From a virus (Duplodnaviria; Heunggongvirae; Uroviricota; Caudoviricetes), in IMG/VR virus record IMGVR_UViG_2909246061_000005: a stretch of 32,531 nt of DNA, one strand, 5' to 3'. This document shows, piece by piece, positions 1,815 to 27,144 of the stretch. Under the pieces are notes generated by a model. That model ran no database searches. It was not told the DNA's origin and was given only the letters and a program-made list of their open reading frames with translations. Every line of letters starts with the position of its first letter. Position 1 is the first letter of the stretch. A program made the position numbers and the translations under genes.

Positions 1815-4800
1815 TATGCAAGCCTCACAATATAGTTAAATGCGATGTTTTTGACGGTGTTTTCCGCGTTACCAGCAGCGTTAACGGTGATGGTGTGTCC
1901 ATGTGAGCCAATCGCAACGGAGTGCGTATGAGCACCAATACCGACAGTATGTGCATGTGCGCCTGCGCTTGCAGCAGTGCCGGACAGCGAGTGGGTATGA
2001 GCACCATCTGATGATGTCTTCCCTGCATTACGAGTCTGGCCACTACCGCTTGTTGTGCTCATAATCCCCGCGCTTAGATTTGAAATCGCGGTATAACCAT
2101 TAGGGAAAATGCTCGTGTTCGTGCCACCAAATGCACCGGAACTCTTGTGTTGGTGCGCACCGGCACTATTTGCAGTCCCGCTAATACTATGGGTATGCGC
2201 CCCGGTGTTATTCGTGGATTTGGTTCCGTAATCAAACGACGATGTGTTTTTCGTCCCCAAATCCGTACTGGATGCGCTGGCGCTGTGGGTGTGCGATTTA
2301 ATGCCGTCCTGTTCCTGAGATAATACGGCTCGACCACTGGCAGGTTTGCCCTTAATCGTCCAGCCACGCATATCAGGGATCACGCCTGACGGATAAGCGG
2401 CTGCAAGTTTTGGGTAGGCAGATTTGTCAAAAGTCTGCCCCTGCATCAGGGCATAACCAGACGGAACGGTATCTGATGGCCACGGGATTGGTGCACCGAC
2501 TGGATAAAACTCTGCAGGAGGATGAGCCGAGGTGTAAAGCTGCGCCCAACCACTTTCAAAACCATAACCGTCTCTTGAAGAACGGTAGAACAGACCACCA
2601 TTTCTGTAATGCGCCTTCATCTGCAAGGTCCGGCAACTTCCGACTCCGGTATAGAAGTTAACCAGAATATAGCTGTCGCCAGAGCGGGTGACATTGTAAG
2701 CGCCTGATTCGGCATTCCATGGAACGCCCCCATCCGCATCGGCATACGCATCCGTTGCTCTTCTGGCAAAAGCAGCCACATGCGCGGCGGTTAAAGTGAT
2801 ATCAGTAGAACCATCAAATGGAACACCGGATATTTTTCTTGCAGTCTGAAGTTTTGTAGCAGTTGCAGCATTACCAGTGGTGTTCTGATTACCCGTAGTG
2901 TTTACACCTGGAAGGTTAATATTTGCAGAACCGTCGAAAACAACTCCACCGATAGATCTTGCCGTCTGCAATTTCGTGGCTGTACTTGCATTACCATTCA
3001 ATGAACCAGTTAATCCACCTGTAACAGACAACGGACCTGAAACTGTTCCTCCGGTTGTTGGCAGTGCTCCAATATCTAACGGCGTCGGTTTCTGATGTGT
3101 GCTATACATCGTATAAACAACACCATCGGTAACGCTGGAAGGCTTACTCGCTGAATATGTTGGCGATGTATAAATAGAAACTGTCGCATTTGCAGTACAA
3201 TCCCAATGGATATTTACACGAGTCGCATAATTGCCAATCTCAACGTAAATATCATATGTATCGCCGGATGTGTTGATCCAGGCGAAATTCGTTAATCCGA
3301 CGGCTGTACGCTTCCACAAAGCCCCGGTAATTCCTTTGGGGTTTCCATTGCCTGCTCGTAGAACCAGTTCTGAAATGCCTGCCTGATGTGGGGAACCGAC
3401 GTTGTAACCAGCGCCACCAATCAATGCGATGTAAACGATGGAACTCGCTTGTGGCATGGTAACCGTAGCCAGTTTGAACCACCCAGCCCCGCCAGAGAAA
3501 GACATCGTTACTGAATTTAAAGTACCAATATCTTTCGGCGTTAATGTTATATCCGCAGTCAGTGCTTTTCCGTTAACTTTTCGGTTAGATGGCACCCTGC
3601 TATTCGCATTGTCATTGGCTGCTTTAACTGCTTTTGGCGTTGCGGCCAGCGATTCACTGGTGCTATCAACAGCACTGCTAAGTTTCACAACACCTTTAGT
3701 TGTAAGGCTTGCGTCTTCCATCGCAACTGCACCGGCAATCTCTTCAGCACGATCAGCAGCAGCTTCCGCACGGGTCGCAGCGGATTCAGCAGCAGTTTTG
3801 CTCTGAGATGCTGCCGTCGCACTGCCTGCCGCCTCTGTTGCTTTCGTGGATGCCGTCGTGGCGCTGCCCTTCGCTGCTGACGCCTGTCTGGTCGCCTCAT
3901 CTTTTGAAGCAGACGCAGATGATGCCGATGACGCTGCCGAACTGGCGGACGATGCGGCTGCCGTTTTTGAGGATTCTGCACGGGTTTCCGACGCTTTCGC
4001 ATTCGTTTCGGATGTCTTCGCTGCGGAAGCAGACCTCGCTGCTGCGCTGGCCTGTACAGCGGCTTCGCCAGCCTTCGTTGTGGCTGTTGAAGCGGACGAT
4101 GCAGCACTTTCTGCCGATTTTCCGGCGGCGGTGGCACTGGCTGAGGCCTGCCCGGCACTTGTTGACGCGGCACTGGCAGACGACGCAGCCGCTGTTTTTG
4201 AGCCTGCCGCAGCTGAGGCACTCTGTCCCGCTGCCGTTTCAGAAGCCTTGGCGTTCGTCTCGGACGTTTTTGCCGCCTTCGCAGAATTTGCTGCCGCCGT
4301 TGCCGAGGAAGCGGCACTACTGGCGCTTGATGATGCGTTCGTTTCTGATGATTTTGCCGCCTCTTTTGAAGCCGACGCATCCCGTGCTGAAGTGGCTGCT
4401 TCTGACGCTTTCGTGGTCGCGGTGGATGCAGAAGTGGCTGCTGATTGTTGTGACGCTGCCGCATTCGTTTCTGACGTTTTCGCCGCAGCGGCACTGGTAG
4501 CCGCCGCGCTTTTTGAGGACTCTGCAGCGGCAGCACTTTTTGATGCCTCAGAGGCTTTTGCTGATGCCGTTCCTGCGCTGGAAAAAGCCTCCTGAGCCGA
4601 CGTCGCGGCCTGTCCGGCTGACGTGCTGGCTGCACGTGCTGAGCCTGCAGCATCAGTCGCATGGGTTGCCGCCTCACGGGCAGATGTGCTGGCATCACTG
4701 GCTGACTTCTTCGCGGCTGCCGTGTTCTGTGCCACTGCGGACGCGTTACGCGCCACCTCTTCCACCATCAGTTCAAAACGTCGCAATGCCTCCGGACGGG

Positions 4801-18325: not shown

Positions 18326-19603
18326 CTATGGTTTTTTATTAGAATCTTCGCCACTAAATAAATTATAATAAATTGATTTTATTAGATATCTGTCAGAATC
18401 TATATGGTCAGCACGAGTAGCATGCTCTAATGTTTCAAATGCTAGGGTTTGTGCGGCTTCAGCAAAAATTCCAGGCCAACCCTTACTCAGCATCGACAGT
18501 CCTTTAAGTACCCTTATCTGAATTTCCCTCATACTGGCACCATCGCGCGCAACAGGTGAGAAAAAGTCTTCAAGTAGATCGTTATTCTGAAGTGGTGCAA
18601 CATGTACAGAAGGATATTTCACTTCTATTTCATCAGATTTATTCTGCGCGTAAGCGGAAAGTATACGTACACCTCTGCCAATGACATCAATGGCGGTTCC
18701 AGGATCGTTCACTGCGGGGGAAAGGGCTCGGCAGGCTATTTCGGCCATGACGCTAAGACAAAATCGGGGGTCCTGAGCAAATGAACGTACATCCGAGACA
18801 ATAATCGTCTCAAGTAAATCGGTGCTGATTGATGACTCCTGGCCCTGACTCAGGTACAAAACTGGCGTGGACGGATGTATGAAACTGCCCGGCTGCGCCA
18901 CGAGGTATACATGACGGGGATCATTGGTCAGCAGCTTGCTGAGTTTCACCATATCAACATATTCAACATAGCCAATCTTTTTCGGATAAACTGCAACCGT
19001 TCCTTTCGGCTGTTCATTGTTCTCAAGCCATGGATATCCGCCGAGACAGGGATTTCTTGCTCTCGCAATAAATGTTTCGATGGCCGCCTGTTCTACTTTT
19101 GCCGTTGTCTCACCAACCCTCCCCAGAGAGGTCAAATGCTGTATCCAGCGAAGCAATGTGATGAGGATTAAGGCAATGACAACCAGTGTTACAATGAATA
19201 AAATGACTCTCCCCCTTTCTCCATAAGCTCCCATATTGAGGGCAATAATCCCTACCAGACTGAAGAGAAAAGAACCGATGAAGGTGGCCAGTACATTTTG
19301 TGTGGTGACGTCTTCAACAACTAAACGAGTAGCTCTGGGAGTCACATTAGTAGTGGCTGAACCGTAGGCTGTGACCATGATGCTCAGCGAAAATGTGGTC
19401 ACTGCCAGCATACTCGATGCCAGTATGTTCAGAATGTTATCGACTGCTTCCGCACCAACCTTCACGGAAACCGACTCAGGTATCATTGATTTAAAAAGAA
19501 TTGATAAAAGGGCCGTTATTATTGCGACAATTGCGAATAACGTTGCCCTGAACCATAGTTTTTTAAATGTCTGCTTCAGCATCCATTTCCAGCGTGAAAT
19601 CAT
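18326..19603 (-). CDS. DUF2254-like membrane protein
   Basis: 425 aa from the ATG at 19603 (SD GAGGGAA); the track start at 19618 lacks an RBS; N-terminal multi-TM region plus soluble C-terminal domain; family call is recalled. Confidence 0.6.
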   Translation of the reverse strand: MISRWKWMLKQTFKKLWFRATLFAIVAIITALLSILFKSMIPESVSVKVGAEAVDNILNILASSMLAVTTFSLSIMVTAYGSATTNVTPRATRLVVEDVTTQNVLATFIGSFLFSLVGIIALNMGAYGERGRVILFIVTLVVIALILITLLRWIQHLTSLGRVGETTAKVEQAAIETFIARARNPCLGGYPWLENNEQPKGTVAVYPKKIGYVEYVDMVKLSKLLTNDPRHVYLVAQPGSFIHPSTPVLYLSQGQESSISTDLLETIIVSDVRSFAQDPRFCLSVMAEIACRALSPAVNDPGTAIDVIGRGVRILSAYAQNKSDEIEVKYPSVHVAPLQNNDLLEDFFSPVARDGASMREIQIRVLKGLSMLSKGWPGIFAEAAQTLAFETLEHATRADHIDSDRYLIKSIYYNLFSGEDSNKKP

Positions 19604-19666
19604 TCTGCATTCCCTCATATTGCAGCCGGGATAAATAAATGCCGCCTCTGTGGCGGCATGTTGCTG

Positions 19667-21670
19667 TTAACGAACCAGATGCAGGAAGTGCAGGTGTTTT
19701 TCGTACTGGTCCAGTATGTCATTAATCAGCTGTTCCTGATTCCAGCCCATTACATCATAATTTTGGCCGCCCTCTTTGAGATAGACTTCAGCGCGATAAT
19801 ATCGATGTTGTTCACTCTGCTGCTCATCATTATCCAGCGCAGCGAGCGCGAAGGTCGGTGAGTTATACCCGCGAAGCCTCACTTCATATATATAATTCAG
19901 CTCGTTGCCCAAATCGACTTCAAGGCGAATACGATCCTCGGCGGCGTCACTGATGTGGCTTATCGTTCCCTGCTTGTTAAGTTCCTCCTGAACCAGCGTC
20001 ATGGCGGGTTGGATAATGTCGTCCATAAAACGTTTCACAAGAGAGCGCTTCGGCAAATACGCGATATTGCGTAACCTTCTCTGCCAGGGAATTGGGTTAC
20101 GTGCAGCCGTAGGAGCAATAGTCGCCATGCTAAGGCTTTCACGCTTGGTCAAATCCCGACGCAGGGCTTTTAACAGTCCGTATATGGATATTAATAAGAT
20201 AACTGAGAAGGGCAATGCACTCGCTATCGTTACGGTTTGCAACGCACTCAGCCCCCCTGCGATCAGCAGGGCAATAGCAACAACGCCCATGAGCGATGCC
20301 CAGAAAATTCGCTGCCAGACGGGCGTGTTTGCCACCCCACCTGATGCCAGAGTATCCACAACCATTGCCCCCGAATCAGCAGACGTTACAAAGAAGACGA
20401 TGACCATCGCCATTGCAATGAATGACAGCACGGAAGAGAACGGGAAATGCTCCAGGAAATTAAACAGGGCAAGCGCAACATCCTGCTGAACGGTATTGGC
20501 GAGGTCAGTGGCGCCCTGGTTCATGATGAGATAGATGGCGCTGTTTCCAAACACCGTCATCCACATGAGCGTAAAGCCGGCGGGAACAAACAACACGCCA
20601 GTCACGAACTCACGAATTGTCCTGCCGCGGGAAACGCGTGCAATGAACATACCTACAAACGGCGACCATGAAAGCCACCATCCCCAGTATAATAATGTCC
20701 AGCCCCCCAGCCAGTTGCTCGACTTGGGTTCATACGCGTAAAGGTTGAACGTTTTACTCACCAGTTCCGACAGATAACCACCCGTATTTTCCACAAATGA
20801 CTTCAGCAGAAGCACAGTGGGACCCAGGCACAAGACCAGCGCCAGGAGCAACACCGCCAGGCCCAGATTAAGCTCAGACAGGATGCGTATTCCCTTGTCC
20901 AGGCCGGACACCACCGAAATCGTCGCTAACCCCGTGATGACCACGATCAAAATGACCTGTACCGTTTCATTGATGGGCACGCCGAAAAGATGGTTCAAAC
21001 CGGCATTCACCTGCAATACACCGTAACCCAGCGATGTTGCAACGCCAAAGACAGTGCCTATCACGGCGAAGATATCAACCGCGTGGCCTATAGGCCCGTA
21101 AATGCGATCGCCGATAATGGGATAGAGCGCAGAACGCAGCGTTAAAGGCAGACCGTGACGGTAACTGAAAAAGGCCAGAATCAGCGCCACGATGGCATAA
21201 ATTGCCCATGCGTGCAGACCCCAGTGGAAGAACGTCAGGCGCATGGCTTCCTTCGCTGCCGCAACGGTCTCTGGAGTGCCGACAGGTGGCGAAAGATAAT
21301 GCATCACAGGTTCGGCAACGCCAAAGAACATCAGGCCGATCCCCATCCCTGCCGAAAAAAGCATCGCGAACCAGGAGTGGTAGCTGAAATCAGGCTGCGC
21401 ATGATCTGGGCCCAGCTTTATATCACCGTAACGTGAGAGTCCAAGGAACGTGACGCTCAGTAAAATCAGGGCCACAGCAAGTATGTAGAACCAGCTGGCA
21501 TTCGTGAAGATTTGTTGCTGAAGTAGTTTAAAATTTTTGTCGGCGACATCCGGGAATACGGCGGCAAAGGCGACAAGAAGGAAAATTAGCAAAGCAGATG
21601 TAAAGAATACCGCTTTGTTAATCTGGCTTGTAGACTTCTTTGGGGTTGTATCATTTTCACTCATAATCAT
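19667..21670 (-). CDS. BCCT-family transporter, BetT-like (choline/betaine type)
   Basis: 667 aa; WTLLYWGWWLSWSPFVGMFIARVSRGRTIREFV and C-terminal INDILDQYEKHLHFLHL parallel recalled E. coli BetT motifs. Confidence 0.85.
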   Translation of the reverse strand: MIMSENDTTPKKSTSQINKAVFFTSALLIFLLVAFAAVFPDVADKNFKLLQQQIFTNASWFYILAVALILLSVTFLGLSRYGDIKLGPDHAQPDFSYHSWFAMLFSAGMGIGLMFFGVAEPVMHYLSPPVGTPETVAAAKEAMRLTFFHWGLHAWAIYAIVALILAFFSYRHGLPLTLRSALYPIIGDRIYGPIGHAVDIFAVIGTVFGVATSLGYGVLQVNAGLNHLFGVPINETVQVILIVVITGLATISVVSGLDKGIRILSELNLGLAVLLLALVLCLGPTVLLLKSFVENTGGYLSELVSKTFNLYAYEPKSSNWLGGWTLLYWGWWLSWSPFVGMFIARVSRGRTIREFVTGVLFVPAGFTLMWMTVFGNSAIYLIMNQGATDLANTVQQDVALALFNFLEHFPFSSVLSFIAMAMVIVFFVTSADSGAMVVDTLASGGVANTPVWQRIFWASLMGVVAIALLIAGGLSALQTVTIASALPFSVILLISIYGLLKALRRDLTKRESLSMATIAPTAARNPIPWQRRLRNIAYLPKRSLVKRFMDDIIQPAMTLVQEELNKQGTISHISDAAEDRIRLEVDLGNELNYIYEVRLRGYNSPTFALAALDNDEQQSEQHRYYRAEVYLKEGGQNYDVMGWNQEQLINDILDQYEKHLHFLHLVR

Positions 21671-21912
21671 TTATTCCATTAATTAAATCCGCACTGGATA
21701 GAAGGTACTACCTCTCACAGAGTAGCAAAGTTCAACTGGCTATGCGGGGTTAATCGGAATGCATGGTGGAATGAGTGCCGATACAAATCATCCTATATTA
21801 TAAGGAGTTTTAAGTTACTCAGCCTGCCAATTACTGGGGCATTTAATTTGTATGATCTGTATCAAAGCTGGGATATAAGTTAAGTGAAGTATATTAGGCA
21901 CGAATTACCAGC

Positions 21913-21936: not shown

Positions 21937-22004
21937 AACCACGCTAGCTCTACCCTGTGCCACAAAATGTCAATTTGCATCTGAACTAATGCACTTTAAT
22001 CTCG

Positions 22005-22427
22005 TCACTTCAATAAATACCGAACATCCCCCTGATAAAACGACAATATGCGCTGCATAACTTCGCTCTTCCGGCACTCGCGACAGATTATGTTTAGGCG
22101 ACTGTCGTAGCGACGTATTTCTCCGTCAGGTAATGACCAGATAAGGTCCGGATCAACCACAACCGGTTTCTTCAGCTTTGCCCTCGATAATTTTTTGCGG
22201 GCATTTTGCCAGTCTTTACGAGCCTGTTCAGACGGGAATAACCCGTAGCCAGAATTGTATACATCGCCACTGGCAACCAGCTCTCTGGCCAGAACGCTCA
22301 TCAGATATCTTGTTGCCCCAGTTTTAGCTTCCAGTTGTCGTAACGTCTCGCGCCCACTCTGGCGTACGAGTTCAAGAACCTGCCCTTTAATTTTTTCCCG
22401 CTCTTCTTGTGTAAAAACTTTTGCCAC
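22005..22427 (-). CDS. Hypothetical phage protein (140 aa) downstream of the replication initiator
   Basis: GTG start with strong SD AGGAGG at 4-nt spacing; basic, no Walker motif, so not a DnaC-type helicase loader. Confidence 0.5.
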   Translation of the reverse strand: MAKVFTQEEREKIKGQVLELVRQSGRETLRQLEAKTGATRYLMSVLARELVASGDVYNSGYGLFPSEQARKDWQNARKKLSRAKLKKPVVVDPDLIWSLPDGEIRRYDSRLNIICRECRKSEVMQRILSFYQGDVRYLLK

Positions 22428-22467
22428 AAGCCCTCCTGAAAATTACCTCATGACCAGAAATTAACAC

Positions 22468-23544
22468 TTACCCCCTGAAGCCCGGCGGAATTTCGTTATC
22501 CGGTTCAGAAATATGATTCACACAACGCTGGTTGTTCGTGCCGCTTACCGGGAGCAACCAGGGGTTCTCAAAATTCCGGTCCGGTCCAAAAAACGTCGTC
22601 GCTCGCTGAACAAATTCCGTTCCCGTTTTCCCGGTAGCCGCCAAGTATCTTGCGTAACGCCTCACGCCATCCAGCATGGCCTCTGGTGGCACCCCCTCGC
22701 GTAATCTGGCCTTCCAGGCACTGAAAGCGGATTTCTTCGGGTTTGCCCCAGCACGCAACGGGTACTCCCGCCAGACCTGTTCGAACACATCCGGATAATC
22801 CACTCGTCCCACAGACTGCCCGGTGTTTTCCGGGACTACCCGATCGGCTTCCCGCTGAATGGCGGAATCGGCTTCAGGCTGCTGCAGTTGGTGTGATTGC
22901 TCCGCCCTTGCGGTCATCACCTGCTGCACAGCGCCCGAATCGGCTTTCAGCGCATACGCTGAATCGGCTTCCGGTGTCGTGCCTGCTGGCTGACCAAGAT
23001 TGACGGTCTGAACATCCCCTGCCTGGTTCGTGGCGTTTTTTACGCCATGGACCATAGTGTTTTGATCTTCTTGATCTGTATCTTTATCTGTATCTTTATC
23101 TGTCGTGACTCGTCGTGACATGTGCGTGACATTTCGTGACGCGCCGTGACAATCGCCATTTTGTTCCCGCTTTCTTTCCCTCTCTCGCTGCGCCCTCTTG
23201 CGCTCTGCAGGAGATTTTGCGGTTTGCGAAATATTGCCGTTGTCCTCTTTAAGCACCTGGCGTTTTTCCCATCCAGTGATTAAATCACCATCAAGTACCC
23301 GCCCCTGCATCGTCTGCAAAATTGAATCAATTACCTCTTCTGTCACGTCGAGCGCACTTGCCAAATCTTCTGTCGTGACATCAATGTGACCTCGCGTGAC
23401 ATTTCGTGACGCGCTCACCAGGAGGTGGATATACACTGCCATCACTGTTGCAATTGGCTGTCCTGACACCCTGGCAATTGTTCGCCACTTAGGGTCATTT
23501 GGCATGTCATGCCATAATCTGAGCCAGGCGTTAGCCATACTCAC
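22468..23544 (-). CDS. Replication initiation protein (lambda O-like organisation; YdaU position)
   Basis: 358 aa; iteron arrays lie inside the coding sequence as in lambda O/ori; acidic DKDTDKDTD linker; start is the GTG at 23544 or the ATG at 23538. Confidence 0.6.
   Translation of the reverse strand: MSMANAWLRLWHDMPNDPKWRTIARVSGQPIATVMAVYIHLLVSASRNVTRGHIDVTTEDLASALDVTEEVIDSILQTMQGRVLDGDLITGWEKRQVLKEDNGNISQTAKSPAERKRAQRERERKREQNGDCHGASRNVTHMSRRVTTDKDTDKDTDQEDQNTMVHGVKNATNQAGDVQTVNLGQPAGTTPEADSAYALKADSGAVQQVMTARAEQSHQLQQPEADSAIQREADRVVPENTGQSVGRVDYPDVFEQVWREYPLRAGANPKKSAFSAWKARLREGVPPEAMLDGVRRYARYLAATGKTGTEFVQRATTFFGPDRNFENPWLLPVSGTNNQRCVNHISEPDNEIPPGFRG
23069..23150. repeat. Candidate origin iterons: 5 x CGTGAC at about 10-bp phasing, preceded by TATCTTTATCTG tandem repeats
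   Basis: CGTGAC at 23104, 23114, 23125, 23135, 23145; the 21-mer GCGTGACATTTCGTGACGCGC at 23124-23144 recurs at 23394-23414. Confidence 0.6.
23341..23414. repeat. Second iteron cluster (4 direct xGTGAC copies plus 1 inverted)
   Basis: GTCACG at 23343; CGTGAC at 23374, 23395, 23405; TGTGAC at 23385. Confidence 0.55.
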
Positions 23545-23609
23545 CTCTTTTGATACCGAATCTTTTTACTCACAAATTGCCGGAAGTGATCCGGTATGAA
23601 TATTGCGAG

Positions 23610-24035
23610 TCAATGCACAGCCACAATATTTCCTGCAGGGCCACCACGATTCATCTGGTTGAAACCAGCGATCGCCACTGCGACAAAATCATCAGCGTCT
23701 CTCACCAGTCGTTCCCGCGTCTCCACTAGTTCCCGAAAATAGGCTGAGCTATGGCTGCGCATTCGGGCCACCAGCAGAGGTGGCATTGCTTTTTCGATAG
23801 CTGGTAACAACGCCTGAATTTTTTCAACTGCATCAGGGGTGTCTTTCTCTACCCAGCGGAAAATTTTCTGGGTATTGCGAGCCAGGGCTTCCGGATGGCT
23901 GTCGTCATACAGTTCTGGGAACGTCATACCCAGTTCAAAATAAGCCCTGGTTATTTCAGCTGCCGGAACTTTTTCACCGTCCGGATGCGCCCAGGCATTC
24001 ATCGCCATGCGGATGTGTTCATGCTTGATTTTCAT
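23610..24035 (-). CDS. ydaT: YdaT-like protein
   Basis: 141 aa, in the Rac ydaT position (K-12 ydaT is about 140 aa) downstream of the Cro-like gene; overlaps it by 17 nt. Confidence 0.55.
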   Translation of the reverse strand: MKIKHEHIRMAMNAWAHPDGEKVPAAEITRAYFELGMTFPELYDDSHPEALARNTQKIFRWVEKDTPDAVEKIQALLPAIEKAMPPLLVARMRSHSSAYFRELVETRERLVRDADDFVAVAIAGFNQMNRGGPAGNIVAVH

Positions 24036-24300
24036 GAATCAAGCTCCTAGAAAGTGGTTGTGTTAACATTTTGGTATCTTCCAGCTCGGGCCAAATATTC
24101 ATCCAATCAAAAGGCCTTAGTTGCTGACGTGTAACTTCACCATTACTGGCTCGCTCAATAAGGACACATAACGATGCCCCTAACACTTGACCTTTACTCA
24201 ATGCCTTTCTTAGATAACCGATGCTGGTACCACACTCGCATGCAAACATACGCTGTTCATCTGACGAAAGAGAATTGAGAAATATTCTTAATTCTTCCAT
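24019..24300 (-). CDS. ydaS: YdaS-like Cro-type HTH protein
   Basis: 93 aa, first gene of the rightward-equivalent early operon, divergent from the repressor; HTH-like segment GTSIGYLRKALSKGQ. Confidence 0.55.
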   Translation of the reverse strand: MEELRIFLNSLSSDEQRMFACECGTSIGYLRKALSKGQVLGASLCVLIERASNGEVTRQQLRPFDWMNIWPELEDTKMLTQPLSRSLIHENQA

Positions 24301-24329
24301 AGCTACTCCTTAGTAAACACAGCAAAGAA

Positions 24330-24406
24330 TACCCATAGGTAAACAAAAGTCAATACCCACAGGTTGTTTACCTTGCAGTAATCGCATCTATTATTTACCT
24401 ATGGAC
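24330..24406. promoter_or_regulatory. Operator-like palindromes in the divergent promoter region (TACCCATAGGTA; TACCCACAGGTT; TACCTATGG)
   Basis: Three related 12-bp (half-)palindromes between the Cro-like and repressor genes; the third overlaps the repressor ATG. Confidence 0.6.
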
Positions 24407-24820
24407 AAATATGAATTTAGACGACAGCAACTCATCAAAATTCGTGATGAGAAATGCGATGGTAAAGCGGTTAACGTGGCCAGAAAGATCGGGCGCGAGC
24501 CTTCTTATGTATCAAGAATGTTGTACCCAGAGGGGAAAAAGGGAAAAAAACGGATCGCTGATGATATGGTGGAGATTATCGAAGAGTCCTTTGGGTTACC
24601 CCGGGGATGGATGGATGGTATCGTTTCATCATCAACGAACACAGCCTCCAGTTATGAAACAAGGGTTCTAACGCCACGACAACGTATTTTTTTAGATCTC
24701 TTAGACGAACTGCCAGAAAGTGAAGCGGATAACTTATTAAAAACTCTTGAAGAGAAAAAACAGTATTACAATATGATCTACGAAGAAATCCGTAAAAAGA
24801 AAGCACAAAACGCATCATAG
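24401..24820 (+). CDS. Prophage repressor-like HTH protein (RacR position)
   Basis: 139 aa; HTH (GKAVNVARKIGREPSYVSRML); divergent from the Cro-like gene; flanked on both sides by the same palindromic motif. Confidence 0.6.
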   Translation: MDKYEFRRQQLIKIRDEKCDGKAVNVARKIGREPSYVSRMLYPEGKKGKKRIADDMVEIIEESFGLPRGWMDGIVSSSTNTASSYETRVLTPRQRIFLDLLDELPESEADNLLKTLEEKKQYYNMIYEEIRKKKAQNAS

Positions 24821-24862
24821 CTCACCAAACAACTAGTCACCAGTTAAGACACCGCAAAAAGT

Positions 24863-24899
24863 TACCCATGGGTATTTACTTTTTAAATACCTATGGGTA
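24863..24899. promoter_or_regulatory. Second operator-like set downstream of the repressor gene (perfect palindrome TACCCATGGGTA and TACCTATGGGTA)
   Basis: TACCCATGGGTA at 24863-24874 is a perfect 12-bp palindrome; TACCTATGGGTA at 24888-24899. Confidence 0.6.
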
Positions 24900-25074
24900 T
24901 CCTTCTTTTCATACCAACCCACCCCGCCCCACAGAATGCAGGGCAATACTTCGAGTTACCAGGCAGTGGTCAGGGGTTAAGTAGCCAGCCCGAGGCGTAA
25001 GAACATGACGGCGGGATTCAAATTTTGCAGTGCAGCAGTTAGTTCCGCCACCCGGCGTTAAGGGGAGAGATAAG

Positions 25075-25209
25075 ATGGTGCATTACGAAGTAGTTCAGTA
25101 TTTGATGGATTGTTGCGGTATCACTTACAACCAGGCTGTGCAGGCTTTACGCAGCAACGACTGGGATCTCTGGCAGGCAGAAGTCGCTATACGTAGCAAC
25201 AAGATGTGA
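25075..25209 (+). CDS. ydaG: Small protein, 44 aa (YdaG-like)
   Basis: ATG with SD GGGGAGAG; length matches Rac ydaG; not in the ORF track. Confidence 0.4.
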   Translation: MVHYEVVQYLMDCCGITYNQAVQALRSNDWDLWQAEVAIRSNKM

Positions 25210-25219
25210 GATTCGCAAA

Positions 25220-25375
25220 ATGCAAAAAATCGACCTCGGCAACAACGAATCCCTGGTGTGCGGCGTGTTCCCCAACCAGGATGGAACGTTCACTGCCATG
25301 ACGTATACCAAAAGCAAAACATTTAAAACCGAAACTGGTGCGCGCCGATGGTTGGAGAAGCACACAGTAAGCTAA
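25220..25375 (+). CDS. ydaF: Small protein, 51 aa (YdaF-like)
   Basis: ATG at 25220; length matches Rac ydaF; 3' end overlaps the sieB 3' end (convergent); weak RBS. Confidence 0.35.
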   Translation: MQKIDLGNNESLVCGVFPNQDGTFTAMTYTKSKTFKTETGARRWLEKHTVS

Positions 25376-25860
25376 CGATTAAAACGTCTACTCCTTCTGT
25401 TCCAGAATAACTTCATAAAATGGGAGTATTTTTCGGTGACGAGATAATAAGAACAGTTTGCGCTATCACTCTGATGTTGAATGATGCCCTTCCGTTCTAA
25501 TTTTTTCATAACCGGGTTACGGCAAGGAGAAGTGATAATAAGATTTCCTGTTTTAAGGAAATTTTTAAATACAGCGATTTCTTTCTCAGATAAACGAAGC
25601 AATACTCGTTGCTCTGGTAGTAATGAATAATGCTTTTGAATATGTGCTCGCAATCTTGAGAAGGAAATGGCGACCACGAAAGAAAAGGCAAAAACGATAA
25701 TCTGAAAGAGCCAAGGTATTTCAGTATAAGCATTGAATGCGACAGTAAACTCTTTCGGTATCAGCCAGAGAGTGAGACCAAAAATGATAATCGTATACAT
25801 AAGTCTTTCGAGTGGCTCGTTAGCAAAAAGTTTCAACAATGGAGTAAATACATCCAACAT
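25372..25860 (-). CDS. sieB: Superinfection exclusion protein B
   Basis: 162 aa from the ATG at 25860 (MLDVFTPLLKLFANEPLE..), membrane segments; the track's longer ORF has an N-terminal extension. Confidence 0.8.
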   Translation of the reverse strand: MLDVFTPLLKLFANEPLERLMYTIIIFGLTLWLIPKEFTVAFNAYTEIPWLFQIIVFAFSFVVAISFSRLRAHIQKHYSLLPEQRVLLRLSEKEIAVFKNFLKTGNLIITSPCRNPVMKKLERKGIIQHQSDSANCSYYLVTEKYSHFMKLFWNRRSRRFNR

Positions 25861-26301
25861 ATCAATAACTCTCAACTGTAAGGGTATTGAAATGTTAACA
25901 CAAGCTCTCGCTGTAGGGGTATAGCCGAGACCACCGAAGCCCGGAGGTGGTGAAATAAAACCGGGCACAACACGAAGGCGCATTTCCGATATCCATAAAG
26001 AGTCGGTCTTGTCTGTTAAATTTAAATGGTGGGAGTGCGCCTCCGGTTGTAAATAACGACATTGCTGTGTGTAGTCCTGGCGGCATCAGTTTTTTTCTTG
26101 AAGTTCGGCTGATGTCCGCCCTTTTTAAAGTGAATTTTGTGATGCGGTGAATGCGGCTAAGCGCACGTGGCACAGTTAAAAGTCATGTTAGTCCTTATTG
26201 GTTTGGGTGGGAAAGCCGACTGTAATTGTTAACTGGTTGCAGTCACCTGGAGGCACCAGGCACCGCATCAACAAAGTTCATTTGTAAAAATGGAGATAAT
26301 T

Positions 26302-26523
26302 ATGATTGCACATCACTTCGGAACTGATGAAATACCACGTCAGTGTGTGACTCCTGGCGATTATGTTCTTCATGAAGGCCGGACATATATTGCCTCGGCA
26401 AACAATATTAAAAAGCGAAAACTATATATTCGTAACCTGACCACAAAAACATGCATTACTGACCGCATGATTAAAGTCTTCCTCGGTCGTGATGGTTTAC
26501 CTGTAAAGGCGGAGTCATGGTGA
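26302..26523 (+). CDS. kilR: KilR, FtsZ-targeting cell-division inhibitor
   Basis: 73 aa from [21 protein letters not shown]..; matches recalled Rac KilR. Confidence 0.8.
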
Positions 26524-26693
26524 TGACTAAGAAAATAAAATGTGCTTACCACCTTTGCAAAAAAGACGTTGAAGAAAGCAAAGCTATTGAAAGAATGCTT
26601 CACTTCATGCACGGGATTTTATCAAAAGACGAACCGAGAAAATATTGCAGTGAAGCTTGTGCCGAAAAAGACCAGATGGCACATGAACTTTAA
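26523..26693 (+). CDS. ydaE: YdaE-like small Cys-rich protein (56 aa)
   Basis: [30 protein letters not shown]; start overlaps the kilR stop (TGATG); an in-frame ATG at 26517 is an alternative start. Confidence 0.6.
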   Translation: MTKKIKCAYHLCKKDVEESKAIERMLHFMHGILSKDEPRKYCSEACAEKDQMAHEL

Positions 26694-26767
26694 TTAATTG
26701 ACTATTCGAAACTGAATTTATGCCAGAAATGGCAGGTATTCGCTCAACCTTAATTAAGGAGAAAAAC

Positions 26768-27043
26768 ATGATTACCAATTATGAAGCCACTGTTGTAACT
26801 ACCGATGACATTGTTCACGAGGTGAATCTGGAAGGAAAGCGCATTGGCTACGTAATTAAAACAGAAAATAAAGAAACCCCATTCACTGTGGTTGATATCG
26901 ATGGTCCATCAGGCAACGTAAAAACACTTGATGAAGGTGTCAAAAAAATGTGCCTGGTGCATATCGGAAAGAATCTGCCCGCAGAAAAAAAAGCCGAATT
27001 TCTGGCAACTCTAATTGCAATGAAATTAAAAGGTGAAATCTGA
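26768..27043 (+). CDS. racC: RacC
   Basis: 91 aa from MITNYEATVV.. with SD AAGGAG; the track's ORF has a 16-codon extension. Confidence 0.75.
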   Translation: MITNYEATVVTTDDIVHEVNLEGKRIGYVIKTENKETPFTVVDIDGPSGNVKTLDEGVKKMCLVHIGKNLPAEKKAEFLATLIAMKLKGEI

Positions 27044-27050
27044 AAGAAAT

Positions 27051-27071
27051 AGCCTGCGTATGGCGCAGGCT
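27051..27071 (+). other. Stable hairpin between racC and recE (AGCCTGCG-TATGG-CGCAGGCT)
   Basis: Perfect 8-bp stem; no T-run follows on the + strand. Confidence 0.4.
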
Positions 27072-27144
27072 ATGAACAGTGTGTATCCGGCAAGATCATT
27101 CACTGAACAAAACGAATTTTAATCTGAGTTGAGGTTAAAAAACA

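Follow-up and report, generated by a model that had tools for sequence, protein, structure and literature searches.

In prophage CP-933P, PaaR2, YdaS and YdaT were shown experimentally to form a trio like CI, Cro and CII, with right and left operators (OR and OL) and a leaderless repressor gene (PMC8630535). In the Rac prophage of E. coli K-12, RacR is needed to silence toxic early genes (PMC5700373, PMC9638921, PMC11879457). The corresponding region of another Rac-type prophage was analysed here. It lies in a stretch of 32,531 nucleotides (nt) from IMG/VR record IMGVR_UViG_2909246061_000005 (the window, meaning the whole stretch), where copies of one palindrome flank the gene of a 139-amino-acid (aa) protein between positions 24330 and 24899. 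These palindromes are very probably the operators of a lambdoid immunity switch, three at OR and two at OL, with the 139-aa protein as its CI-type repressor. Gene order and the YdaS/YdaT partners are closest to the RacR and PaaR2 switches; specificity is closest to that of phage mEp043. The literature was searched for the 12-mers, mEp043 operator work and the protein accessions, with most subscription journals outside the search; it returned unrelated primer matches or nothing, with no published description of the window's operators or protein and no published operator analysis of mEp043.

As in lambda, the repressor and cro genes diverge, three operators separate the early rightward promoter (PR) and the repressor promoter (PRM), the repressor mRNA is predicted to lack a leader, the operator type is reused at the early leftward promoter (PL), and a CII-type activator gene is found downstream of cro. 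The dyad is 12-14 base pairs (bp) here (TACC-N4-GGTA) and 17 bp in lambda. OL consists of two sites instead of three, at a distance of about 0.5 kb from OR; an S24 autocleavage domain is missing from the repressor, and the Cro and CII analogues are of YdaS and YdaT type. The 933W repressor also uses three OR and two OL sites (PMC3317979), but it is of S24 type and its operators are 15 bp long with another consensus, which rules out the same specificity. CP-933P operators were likewise rejected as having the same specificity, since the sequences differ (half-site consensus GTTTAGTAA), and the repressor gene there heads a toxin-antitoxin operon. Footprinting and reporter assays are available for the analogous PaaR2/YdaS and RacR switches (PMC8630535, PMC9638921).

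Probable operator sites around the repressor gene

The working consensus of the repeated dyad was TACC-N4-GGTA, in its fuller form (T)TACC-N4-GGTA(A). Sites in the window are listed with mismatches to the perfect palindrome, distance from the repressor ATG where relevant, and score and rank with a position weight matrix (PWM).

24330-24341, OR1, TACCCATAGGTA: one mismatch, 8/8 consensus bases; at -71; PWM 21.3, rank 1
24354-24365, OR2, TACCCACAGGTT: three mismatches; at -47; PWM 12.4, rank 4
24369-24380, OR3, TACCTTGCAGTA: 7/8 consensus bases (one G-to-A change); at -32; PWM 9.6, rank 6
24396-24407, candidate fourth site or half-site, TACCTATGGACA: three mismatches; spans the repressor ATG at 24401; PWM 6.7, rank 8
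24401-24820, plus strand, repressor gene: 139 aa, helix-turn-helix (HTH) domain at about residues 1-75, disordered linker at 77-87, DicA-type helical module at 92-138
24863-24874, OL2, TACCCATGGGTA: perfect palindrome; PWM 20.1, rank 2; directly upstream of the PL -35
24888-24899, OL1, TACCTATGGGTA: one mismatch; PWM 19.2, rank 3; in the PL spacer, its last two bases starting the -10

When at most one mismatch to TACCCATGGGTA was allowed, three matches were found in the 32.5 kb, all within 24330-24899 (570 bp). Shuffled sequences gave an expectation of 0.06, and 0/100 shuffles reached three, which rules out a chance origin of the strong sites at 24330, 24863 and 24888. With up to three mismatches the whole window stood at chance level (12 observed, 10.6 expected). 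The copies at 24354 and 24396, each with three mismatches, were therefore judged by their conservation in relatives.

The sample comprised 25 genome loci with the conserved N-terminal domain of the repressor (Yersinia, Arsenophonus, Edwardsiella, Klebsiella, Brenneria, Pantoea, Leclercia, Atlantibacter, Aeromonas, Ferrovum and one Hydrogenophilaceae genome), phages mEp043 and CharmingMan, and four loci with close or short-form relatives. The motif was tallied in 29 related loci (Enterobacterales, Aeromonas, two Betaproteobacteria, plus mEp043 and CharmingMan). In almost all of them TACC-N4-GGTA stood at -72/-73, -47/-48 and -32/-33 from the repressor ATG, and 27 loci, the window among them, had a pair 24-26 bp apart on the 3' side of the gene. 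Over 145 kb of related loci, 97 perfect sites were counted against 2.2 expected, 91 of them at the three upstream positions or in the downstream pair. Information content reached 1.7-2.0 bits at seven of the eight TACC/GGTA positions, 1.16 bits at the last A, where OR2 has T, and no more than 0.6 bits within the central N4. In the close relatives L031 and L033 the N4 and the spacers vary and the half-sites are constant. In mEp043 and CharmingMan, which are functional phages, OR and OL are arranged in the same way.

Equivalents of OR1 were found at -71 to -75 in 30 loci, of OR2 in 24 and of OR3 in 31, the window included in each count. OR2 typically ends in GGTT and is preceded by TCAA, and the window's copy has the same GGTT right half. 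At the OR3 position the close relative L031 carries a perfect TACCTTATGGTA. The PWM was built solely from sites of the more distant relatives, and the window was scored over 32,516 positions; the five assigned sites were among the top six scores. Rank 5 (10.7) fell on 31306-31317 (TACCAACAGGTG), 10 bp inside intR, probably by chance.

At the sequence level the locus combines divergent repressor and cro-like genes, a short spacer, dyad copies over both promoters, further copies at a second promoter, and an HTH repressor. The earlier note had named five palindrome copies, three in the divergent region and two downstream of the repressor gene, and read them as a lambda-like OR/OL arrangement that absence of the motif from related immunity regions would refute. 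That check was made on the related loci, and the motif proved to be conserved. All five copies were recovered where the note had placed them, the downstream pair recurs as described above, and promoter context and comparison support the arrangement. Of the three divergent copies, those at 24330 and 24354 occupy conserved positions. The third, overlapping the ATG, is not conserved in the family and is unproven as an operator; the conserved site at -32 is 24369-24380, which the earlier note had missed.

Whether 24396-24407 is a working operator, instead of or besides 24369-24380, blocking PRM at its start site, was weighed separately. Its rank of 8 among 32,516 positions corresponds to a chance of roughly 2-3% for such a score anywhere within a 100-bp spacer, and ATTTACC (left half and flank) is identical at 24396 and OR3. 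The copy is conserved in the E. coli relatives L031 and L032. A site also overlaps the repressor ATG in phage Tritos and in K-12 Rac, where RacR operator O3 is reported to block likewise (PMC9638921). Beyond the closest clade, however, the copy has no counterpart: among the relatives, TACC as left half survives in the closest E. coli ones alone; Salmonella (L033) reads TACT there, and the half-site is missing from all others. The codons ATG GAC AAA (Met-Asp-Lys) fix the right half GACA, which matches at 2/4 bases, and the copy's score of 6.7 compares with 19-21 for the strong sites. An operator role for this copy is rather doubtful.

Predicted promoters and the downstream pair

Promoters were predicted by a consensus hexamer scan (bases matched out of 12). 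PL was placed by alignment with relatives because its hexamers match at only 8/12 and were unlisted by the scan.

24326-24353, minus strand, PR-like promoter: TTGACT (24353-24348), 16 nt, TATTCT (24331-24326); 9/12
24367-24394, plus strand, PRM-like promoter: TTTACC, 16 nt, TATTAT; 9/12; OR3 overlaps the -35
24875-24903, plus strand, putative PL: TTTACT (24875-24880), 17 nt, TATCCT (24898-24903); 8/12

OR1 occupies the PR spacer and the first -10 bases, and OR2 abuts the PR -35 hexamer; the GGTATTGAC junction at PR is conserved in relatives. The predicted PR would drive the cro-like gene, whose ATG is preceded by the Shine-Dalgarno sequence AAGGAG, the ydaT-like gene and the replication genes. 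The -10 of PRM ends 6 nt before the ATG at 24401 and the repressor gene is without a Shine-Dalgarno sequence, which predicts a repressor mRNA without a leader. In relatives a -10-like hexamer (tagaat, taaaat etc.) stands at an equal distance from the ATG, again with no Shine-Dalgarno sequence. Leaderless repressor mRNAs have been reported for lambda cI and paaR2 (PMC8630535) and for racR (PMC9638921).

At PL the relatives carry TTGACn and TATATT, 17-18 nt apart. A -35-like hexamer always comes right after the first downstream site, and TAnnnT follows 17-18 nt on, opening with the TA of the second site's GGTA. These hexamer positions are conserved across 27 loci including the window. The putative PL would drive ydaG-like, ydaF, a DicF-like small RNA (sRNA), kilR and recET.

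The leader behind PL (24908-25074, ccacccaccccgccccacagaa...) is 89-99% conserved between the window's prophage, K-12 Rac and Tritos, although the three differ in immunity type. This leader gave no Rfam match and its folding was not unusual (z = -0.18), and a structured RNA or known RNA family in it was ruled out on these two results. A nut-like or other antitermination role is possible.

The pair at 24863-24899 might instead be mainly an intrinsic terminator of the repressor transcript, its palindromes forming the arms of a hairpin. A scan of the pair found a 16-pair stem with a 5-nt loop and the tail TCCTTCTTTT; the RNA folds with -22.9 kcal/mol (z = -6.4), the stem lies 43 nt past the repressor stop codon, and central-base changes in L031 preserve pairing. 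Such a hairpin, however, arises by construction from any two copies of a palindrome. In the 27 loci, between 0 and 4 of the 4 N4-N4 positions pair, and hairpin energies span -5 to -24 kcal/mol. Relatives have not preserved the T tract (4 T in L031 and 1 T in L033 in the next 10 nt), the tail or the central pairing, and only 5/16 pairs of the window's stem are G-C. The distance between the pair and the repressor ATG is 460-2500 bp, often with other genes in between, and the -35 and -10 are always in fixed register. In K-12 Rac, Tritos and Qin the operator pairs are non-identical and the promoter layout is the same. A terminator as the main function is improbable; a secondary terminator role for the window's pair is conceivable.

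In the proposed switch, the HTH domain of the 139-aa CI-type repressor would recognise (T)TACC-N4-GGTA(A). Bound at OR1/OR2 and OL1/OL2, the repressor would hold both early operons off: the rightward one with the replication genes and the homologues of ydaS (cro-like) and ydaT (CII-like), and the leftward one with ydaG/ydaF, the DicF-like sRNA, kilR and recET. OR3 would give negative autoregulation, and the Cro-like protein would probably act through the same sites. What the analysis shows is where the sites lie, how far they exceed chance, how constantly they are placed relative to the promoter hexamers, how they co-vary with the DNA-binding domain and where the mosaic boundaries run. That the repressor and Cro bind them, that the promoters are active, in what order the sites fill, and any looping or cooperativity are inferred.

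Several points count against a working immunity switch. The PL hexamers of the window are weak and escaped the scan, OR3 deviates from the consensus, and the OL pair doubles as a strong hairpin followed by a T-rich tail. The literature search described above returned no binding, transcription or genetic data for the 139-aa protein or its sites. As the prophage is defective, parts of the switch may be decaying.

The repressor and its natural swaps

The repressor was assigned to phrog_5736 ('transcriptional regulator', E 4e-70); a Pfam search gave no family. Residues 1-86 share 65% identity with the N-terminal part of mEp043 CI and 60-82% with many S24/LexA-type repressors of 220-242 aa from Enterobacterales. 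The mEp043-type N-terminal domain, MDKYE..RR..L..IRD..C.GKA..VAR.I.REPSYVSRMLYPEGKKGKKRIADDM, which is associated with TACC-N4-GGTA, is present, and its recognition helix EPSYVSRMLY is at least 90% conserved in both S24-type and short repressors. Residues 89-134 are 33% identical to residues 84-129 of DicA from Qin (46 residues, E 1e-7, BLASTP). NCBIfam NF007257 (DicA) matched at E 2.8e-5, far under the full-length cut-off, as expected for a partial match. The CI of Tritos has the same C-terminal module and a different N-terminus.

In an AlphaFold2 model (pLDDT 86) the N-terminal domain was helical, with helices 23-30 and 34-40 as the HTH, and the C-terminal part consisted of two helices only. 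The best Foldseek matches were Rep of Salmonella phage SPC32H, a short repressor, and XRE-type proteins, none at E <= 0.001. A winged-helix match (ADAR Z-alpha) from a sequence search of solved structures was insignificant (E ~0.08) and was disregarded. Pfam gave no match to the S24 peptidase domain (PF00717), and the S24 part of the relatives is replaced by the 50-residue helical module. Because a DicA-type C-terminus stands in place of the S24 peptidase, the SOS response is predicted to leave the repressor uncleaved.

Database proteins P0015-P0018 (rare, 1-4 members each) begin at an alternative-frame ATG at 24411 and are back in the frame of the repressor from about residue 47 on. They represent either frameshifted alleles or errors of sequencing, and the HTH would be missing from them. 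The repressor gene has G/A homopolymer runs at ~24533-24551 of the window.

Comparison with mEp043 and CharmingMan showed the same recognition helix, the same site offsets in OR, a pair at PL and a Cro with 73% identity. The CI of mEp043 differs in its length of 228 aa with an S24/LexA-type C-terminus; its CII and replication modules are different and the phage is viable. The earlier note had regarded the specificity as proper to a Rac variant; it is shared with mEp043-type phages. The Rac label itself holds for the gene context and fails for the repressor. A RacR homologue was ruled out by a best BLASTP E-value of 2.3 against K-12 RacR, with no detectable similarity, and by a different operator motif, TTAGGC-N3-GCCTAA for RacR. 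K-12 Rac is alike in genomic position and flanks (sieB, ydaF, ydaG, kilR, recET, intR), in the layout of two promoters plus PL, and in its YdaT box.

24910, mosaic junction: 24910-27531 is 99.6% identical to K-12 Rac (blastn, NC_000913.3)

This junction lies 7 nt past the putative PL -10, and leftward of it the sequences diverge from K-12 Rac. K-12 has RacR-type dyads in the same PL layout. In K-12 Rac (L002, NC_000913.3 ~2625-2680, minus strand), ATTAGGCataGCCTAT and ATTAGGCattACCTAT bracket TTGACA/TATAGT downstream of racR: TTGACA overlaps the last T of ATTAGGCataGCCTAT, and ATTAGGCattACCTAT runs into TATAGT directly before the junction. These dyads are apparently an OL/PL and fit the RacR operator consensus of PMC9638921. 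Passages retrieved from the RacR papers describe sites only in and beside the racR-ydaS spacer.

Relative to Tritos the window is homologous over 21947-24047 (96%), ending just beyond the YdaT box, over 24704-24819 (76%, the repressor C-terminal module) and over 24917-25066 (89%). Only 24048-24703 (cro, OR and the DNA-binding domain) and 24820-24916 (OL/PL) are replaced, and Tritos has its own dyad, TGAAC...GTACA, in both replaced patches. Its OR (L004, 2356-2429) holds three TGAACttttaGTACAT-type copies, of which the third overlaps the cI start codon ATG; another two, 24 bp from each other, are found at PL (2914-2957). The annotated cro-cI spacer of Tritos is 7 bp, probably from a mis-called start.

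Qin has the same layout around dicA with its own motif, and K-12 Rac, Tritos and Qin all share the PL layout of the window. Like the 139-aa protein, DicA is a short (135 aa), non-cleavable repressor with a related C-terminal module, and in the DicA/DicC system an operator pair is placed around the promoter of the ydfABC-dicF-dicB operon downstream. The DNA-binding domain of DicA and the operator sequence are unrelated. TACC-N4-GGTA is absent from Tritos, K-12 Rac and Qin, and also from the distant relative L030 (33% identity), all of which have a different recognition helix. It is present beside both S24-type and short C-termini.

The partner genes of the repressor on the rightward side are the following.

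24019-24300, minus strand, Cro-like (YdaS-type) gene: 93 aa, divergent from the repressor; phrog_35
23610-24035, minus strand, YdaT/CII-like gene: 141 aa; Pfam YdaT_toxin E 7e-10; phrog_163, CII-like activator
24025-24042, YdaT box: TTGATT-N6-AATCAA = TTGATTcatgaaAATCAA, perfect; overlaps the ydaT-like start codon (24035)

The Cro-like protein matched Pfam YdaS_toxin at E 9e-6, under the curated cut-off, and the YdaT-like protein is 33% identical to K-12 YdaT. The YdaT box, the only stretch of the immunity region that still aligns with K-12 Rac, matches the published CP-933P YdaT site exactly (PMC9986795) and is close to the K-12 YdaT site (PMC11879457). It is likely a CII-type establishment element.

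In principle the Cro-like YdaS homologue, or some other factor, could be the sole reader of the sites, with the 139-aa protein binding elsewhere or nowhere. A Cro-like homologue adjoins the repressor and accompanies the motif in 24/29 related loci, and co-occurrence alone cannot separate the two proteins. Klebsiella loci in which no Cro-like homologue was found nevertheless retain sites beside the repressor, the YdaT homologue has a separate box of its own, and relative to Tritos the repressor N-terminal domain was swapped together with both operator patches. Exclusive reading by another protein is very improbable on these grounds. The motif is tied to the repressor's DNA-binding domain by the natural swaps, the negative L030 and the Klebsiella loci.

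The five Klebsiella loci (L009, L011, L013-L015) have S24-type repressors. They keep the -73 and -33 sites, are without OR2, and retain the downstream pair in 4/5 cases (not in L013). No Cro-like homologue was found in them, and the open reading frame listing of L013 holds no candidate of at least 40 aa. Their repressors may be orphans in degraded prophages.

Prophage setting and implications

The window represents a defective E. coli prophage of Rac type. The same stretch is present, 100% identical, in strain 2017.11.01CC, whose annotation was used for gene context. Its order is:

First part: intR, xisR, rcbA, ralR, recT, recE, racC, ydaE, kilR, sieB, ydaF
Continued: 'phage protein', 139-aa 'hypothetical protein', 'transcriptional regulator', 'toxin YdaT family protein', replication gene, cargo, lysis genes, trkG
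~14300-21700, cargo: MFS transporter, gamma-glutamylcyclotransferase, LysR regulator, DUF2254 protein, BCCT transporter

The cargo is of non-phage type and lies between the replication module and late-gene remnants. No antirepressor gene is listed in the annotation of the identical E. coli record, which was the only source consulted for it. Between sieB and kilR, a DicF-like RNA (26066-26121, plus strand) scored 39.1 bits against a gathering score of 48, and an STnc100-like RNA (26123-26309, plus strand) 35.5 bits against 47; the K-12 annotation of the sieB-kilR region has the sRNA KilS. The 1.8-kb immunity region was found at >=80% coverage in 793/5,426 complete E. coli genomes (~15%).

We tentatively suggest, at less than even confidence, that the TACC-N4-GGTA specificity, the DNA-binding domain and Cro travel as a cassette, from E. 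coli to Betaproteobacteria, with interchangeable C-termini. The DicA-type C-terminus here would then give permanent, SOS-insensitive immunity against mEp043-type phages together with silencing of kilR and the ydaS/ydaT-like genes. The comparison of K-12 Rac, Tritos and the window gives a clean natural example of a joint exchange of the pieces that set specificity (binding domain, OR, Cro and OL), with the putative oligomerisation module and the transcribed leader left in place.

These results leave the understanding of such switches unchanged. Their interest is modest and lies in a domain-swapped, probably non-inducible repressor, for which cross-immunity with mEp043-type phages and no SOS-induced cleavage are predicted. 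They provide a testable operator map, with five sites and three promoters, for an uncharacterised immunity type that replaces racR-ydaS-ydaT. The 139-aa 'hypothetical protein' is predicted to control kilR, recET and the ydaS/ydaT-like genes as their master repressor, and it may be essential in carrier strains, like RacR in K-12.

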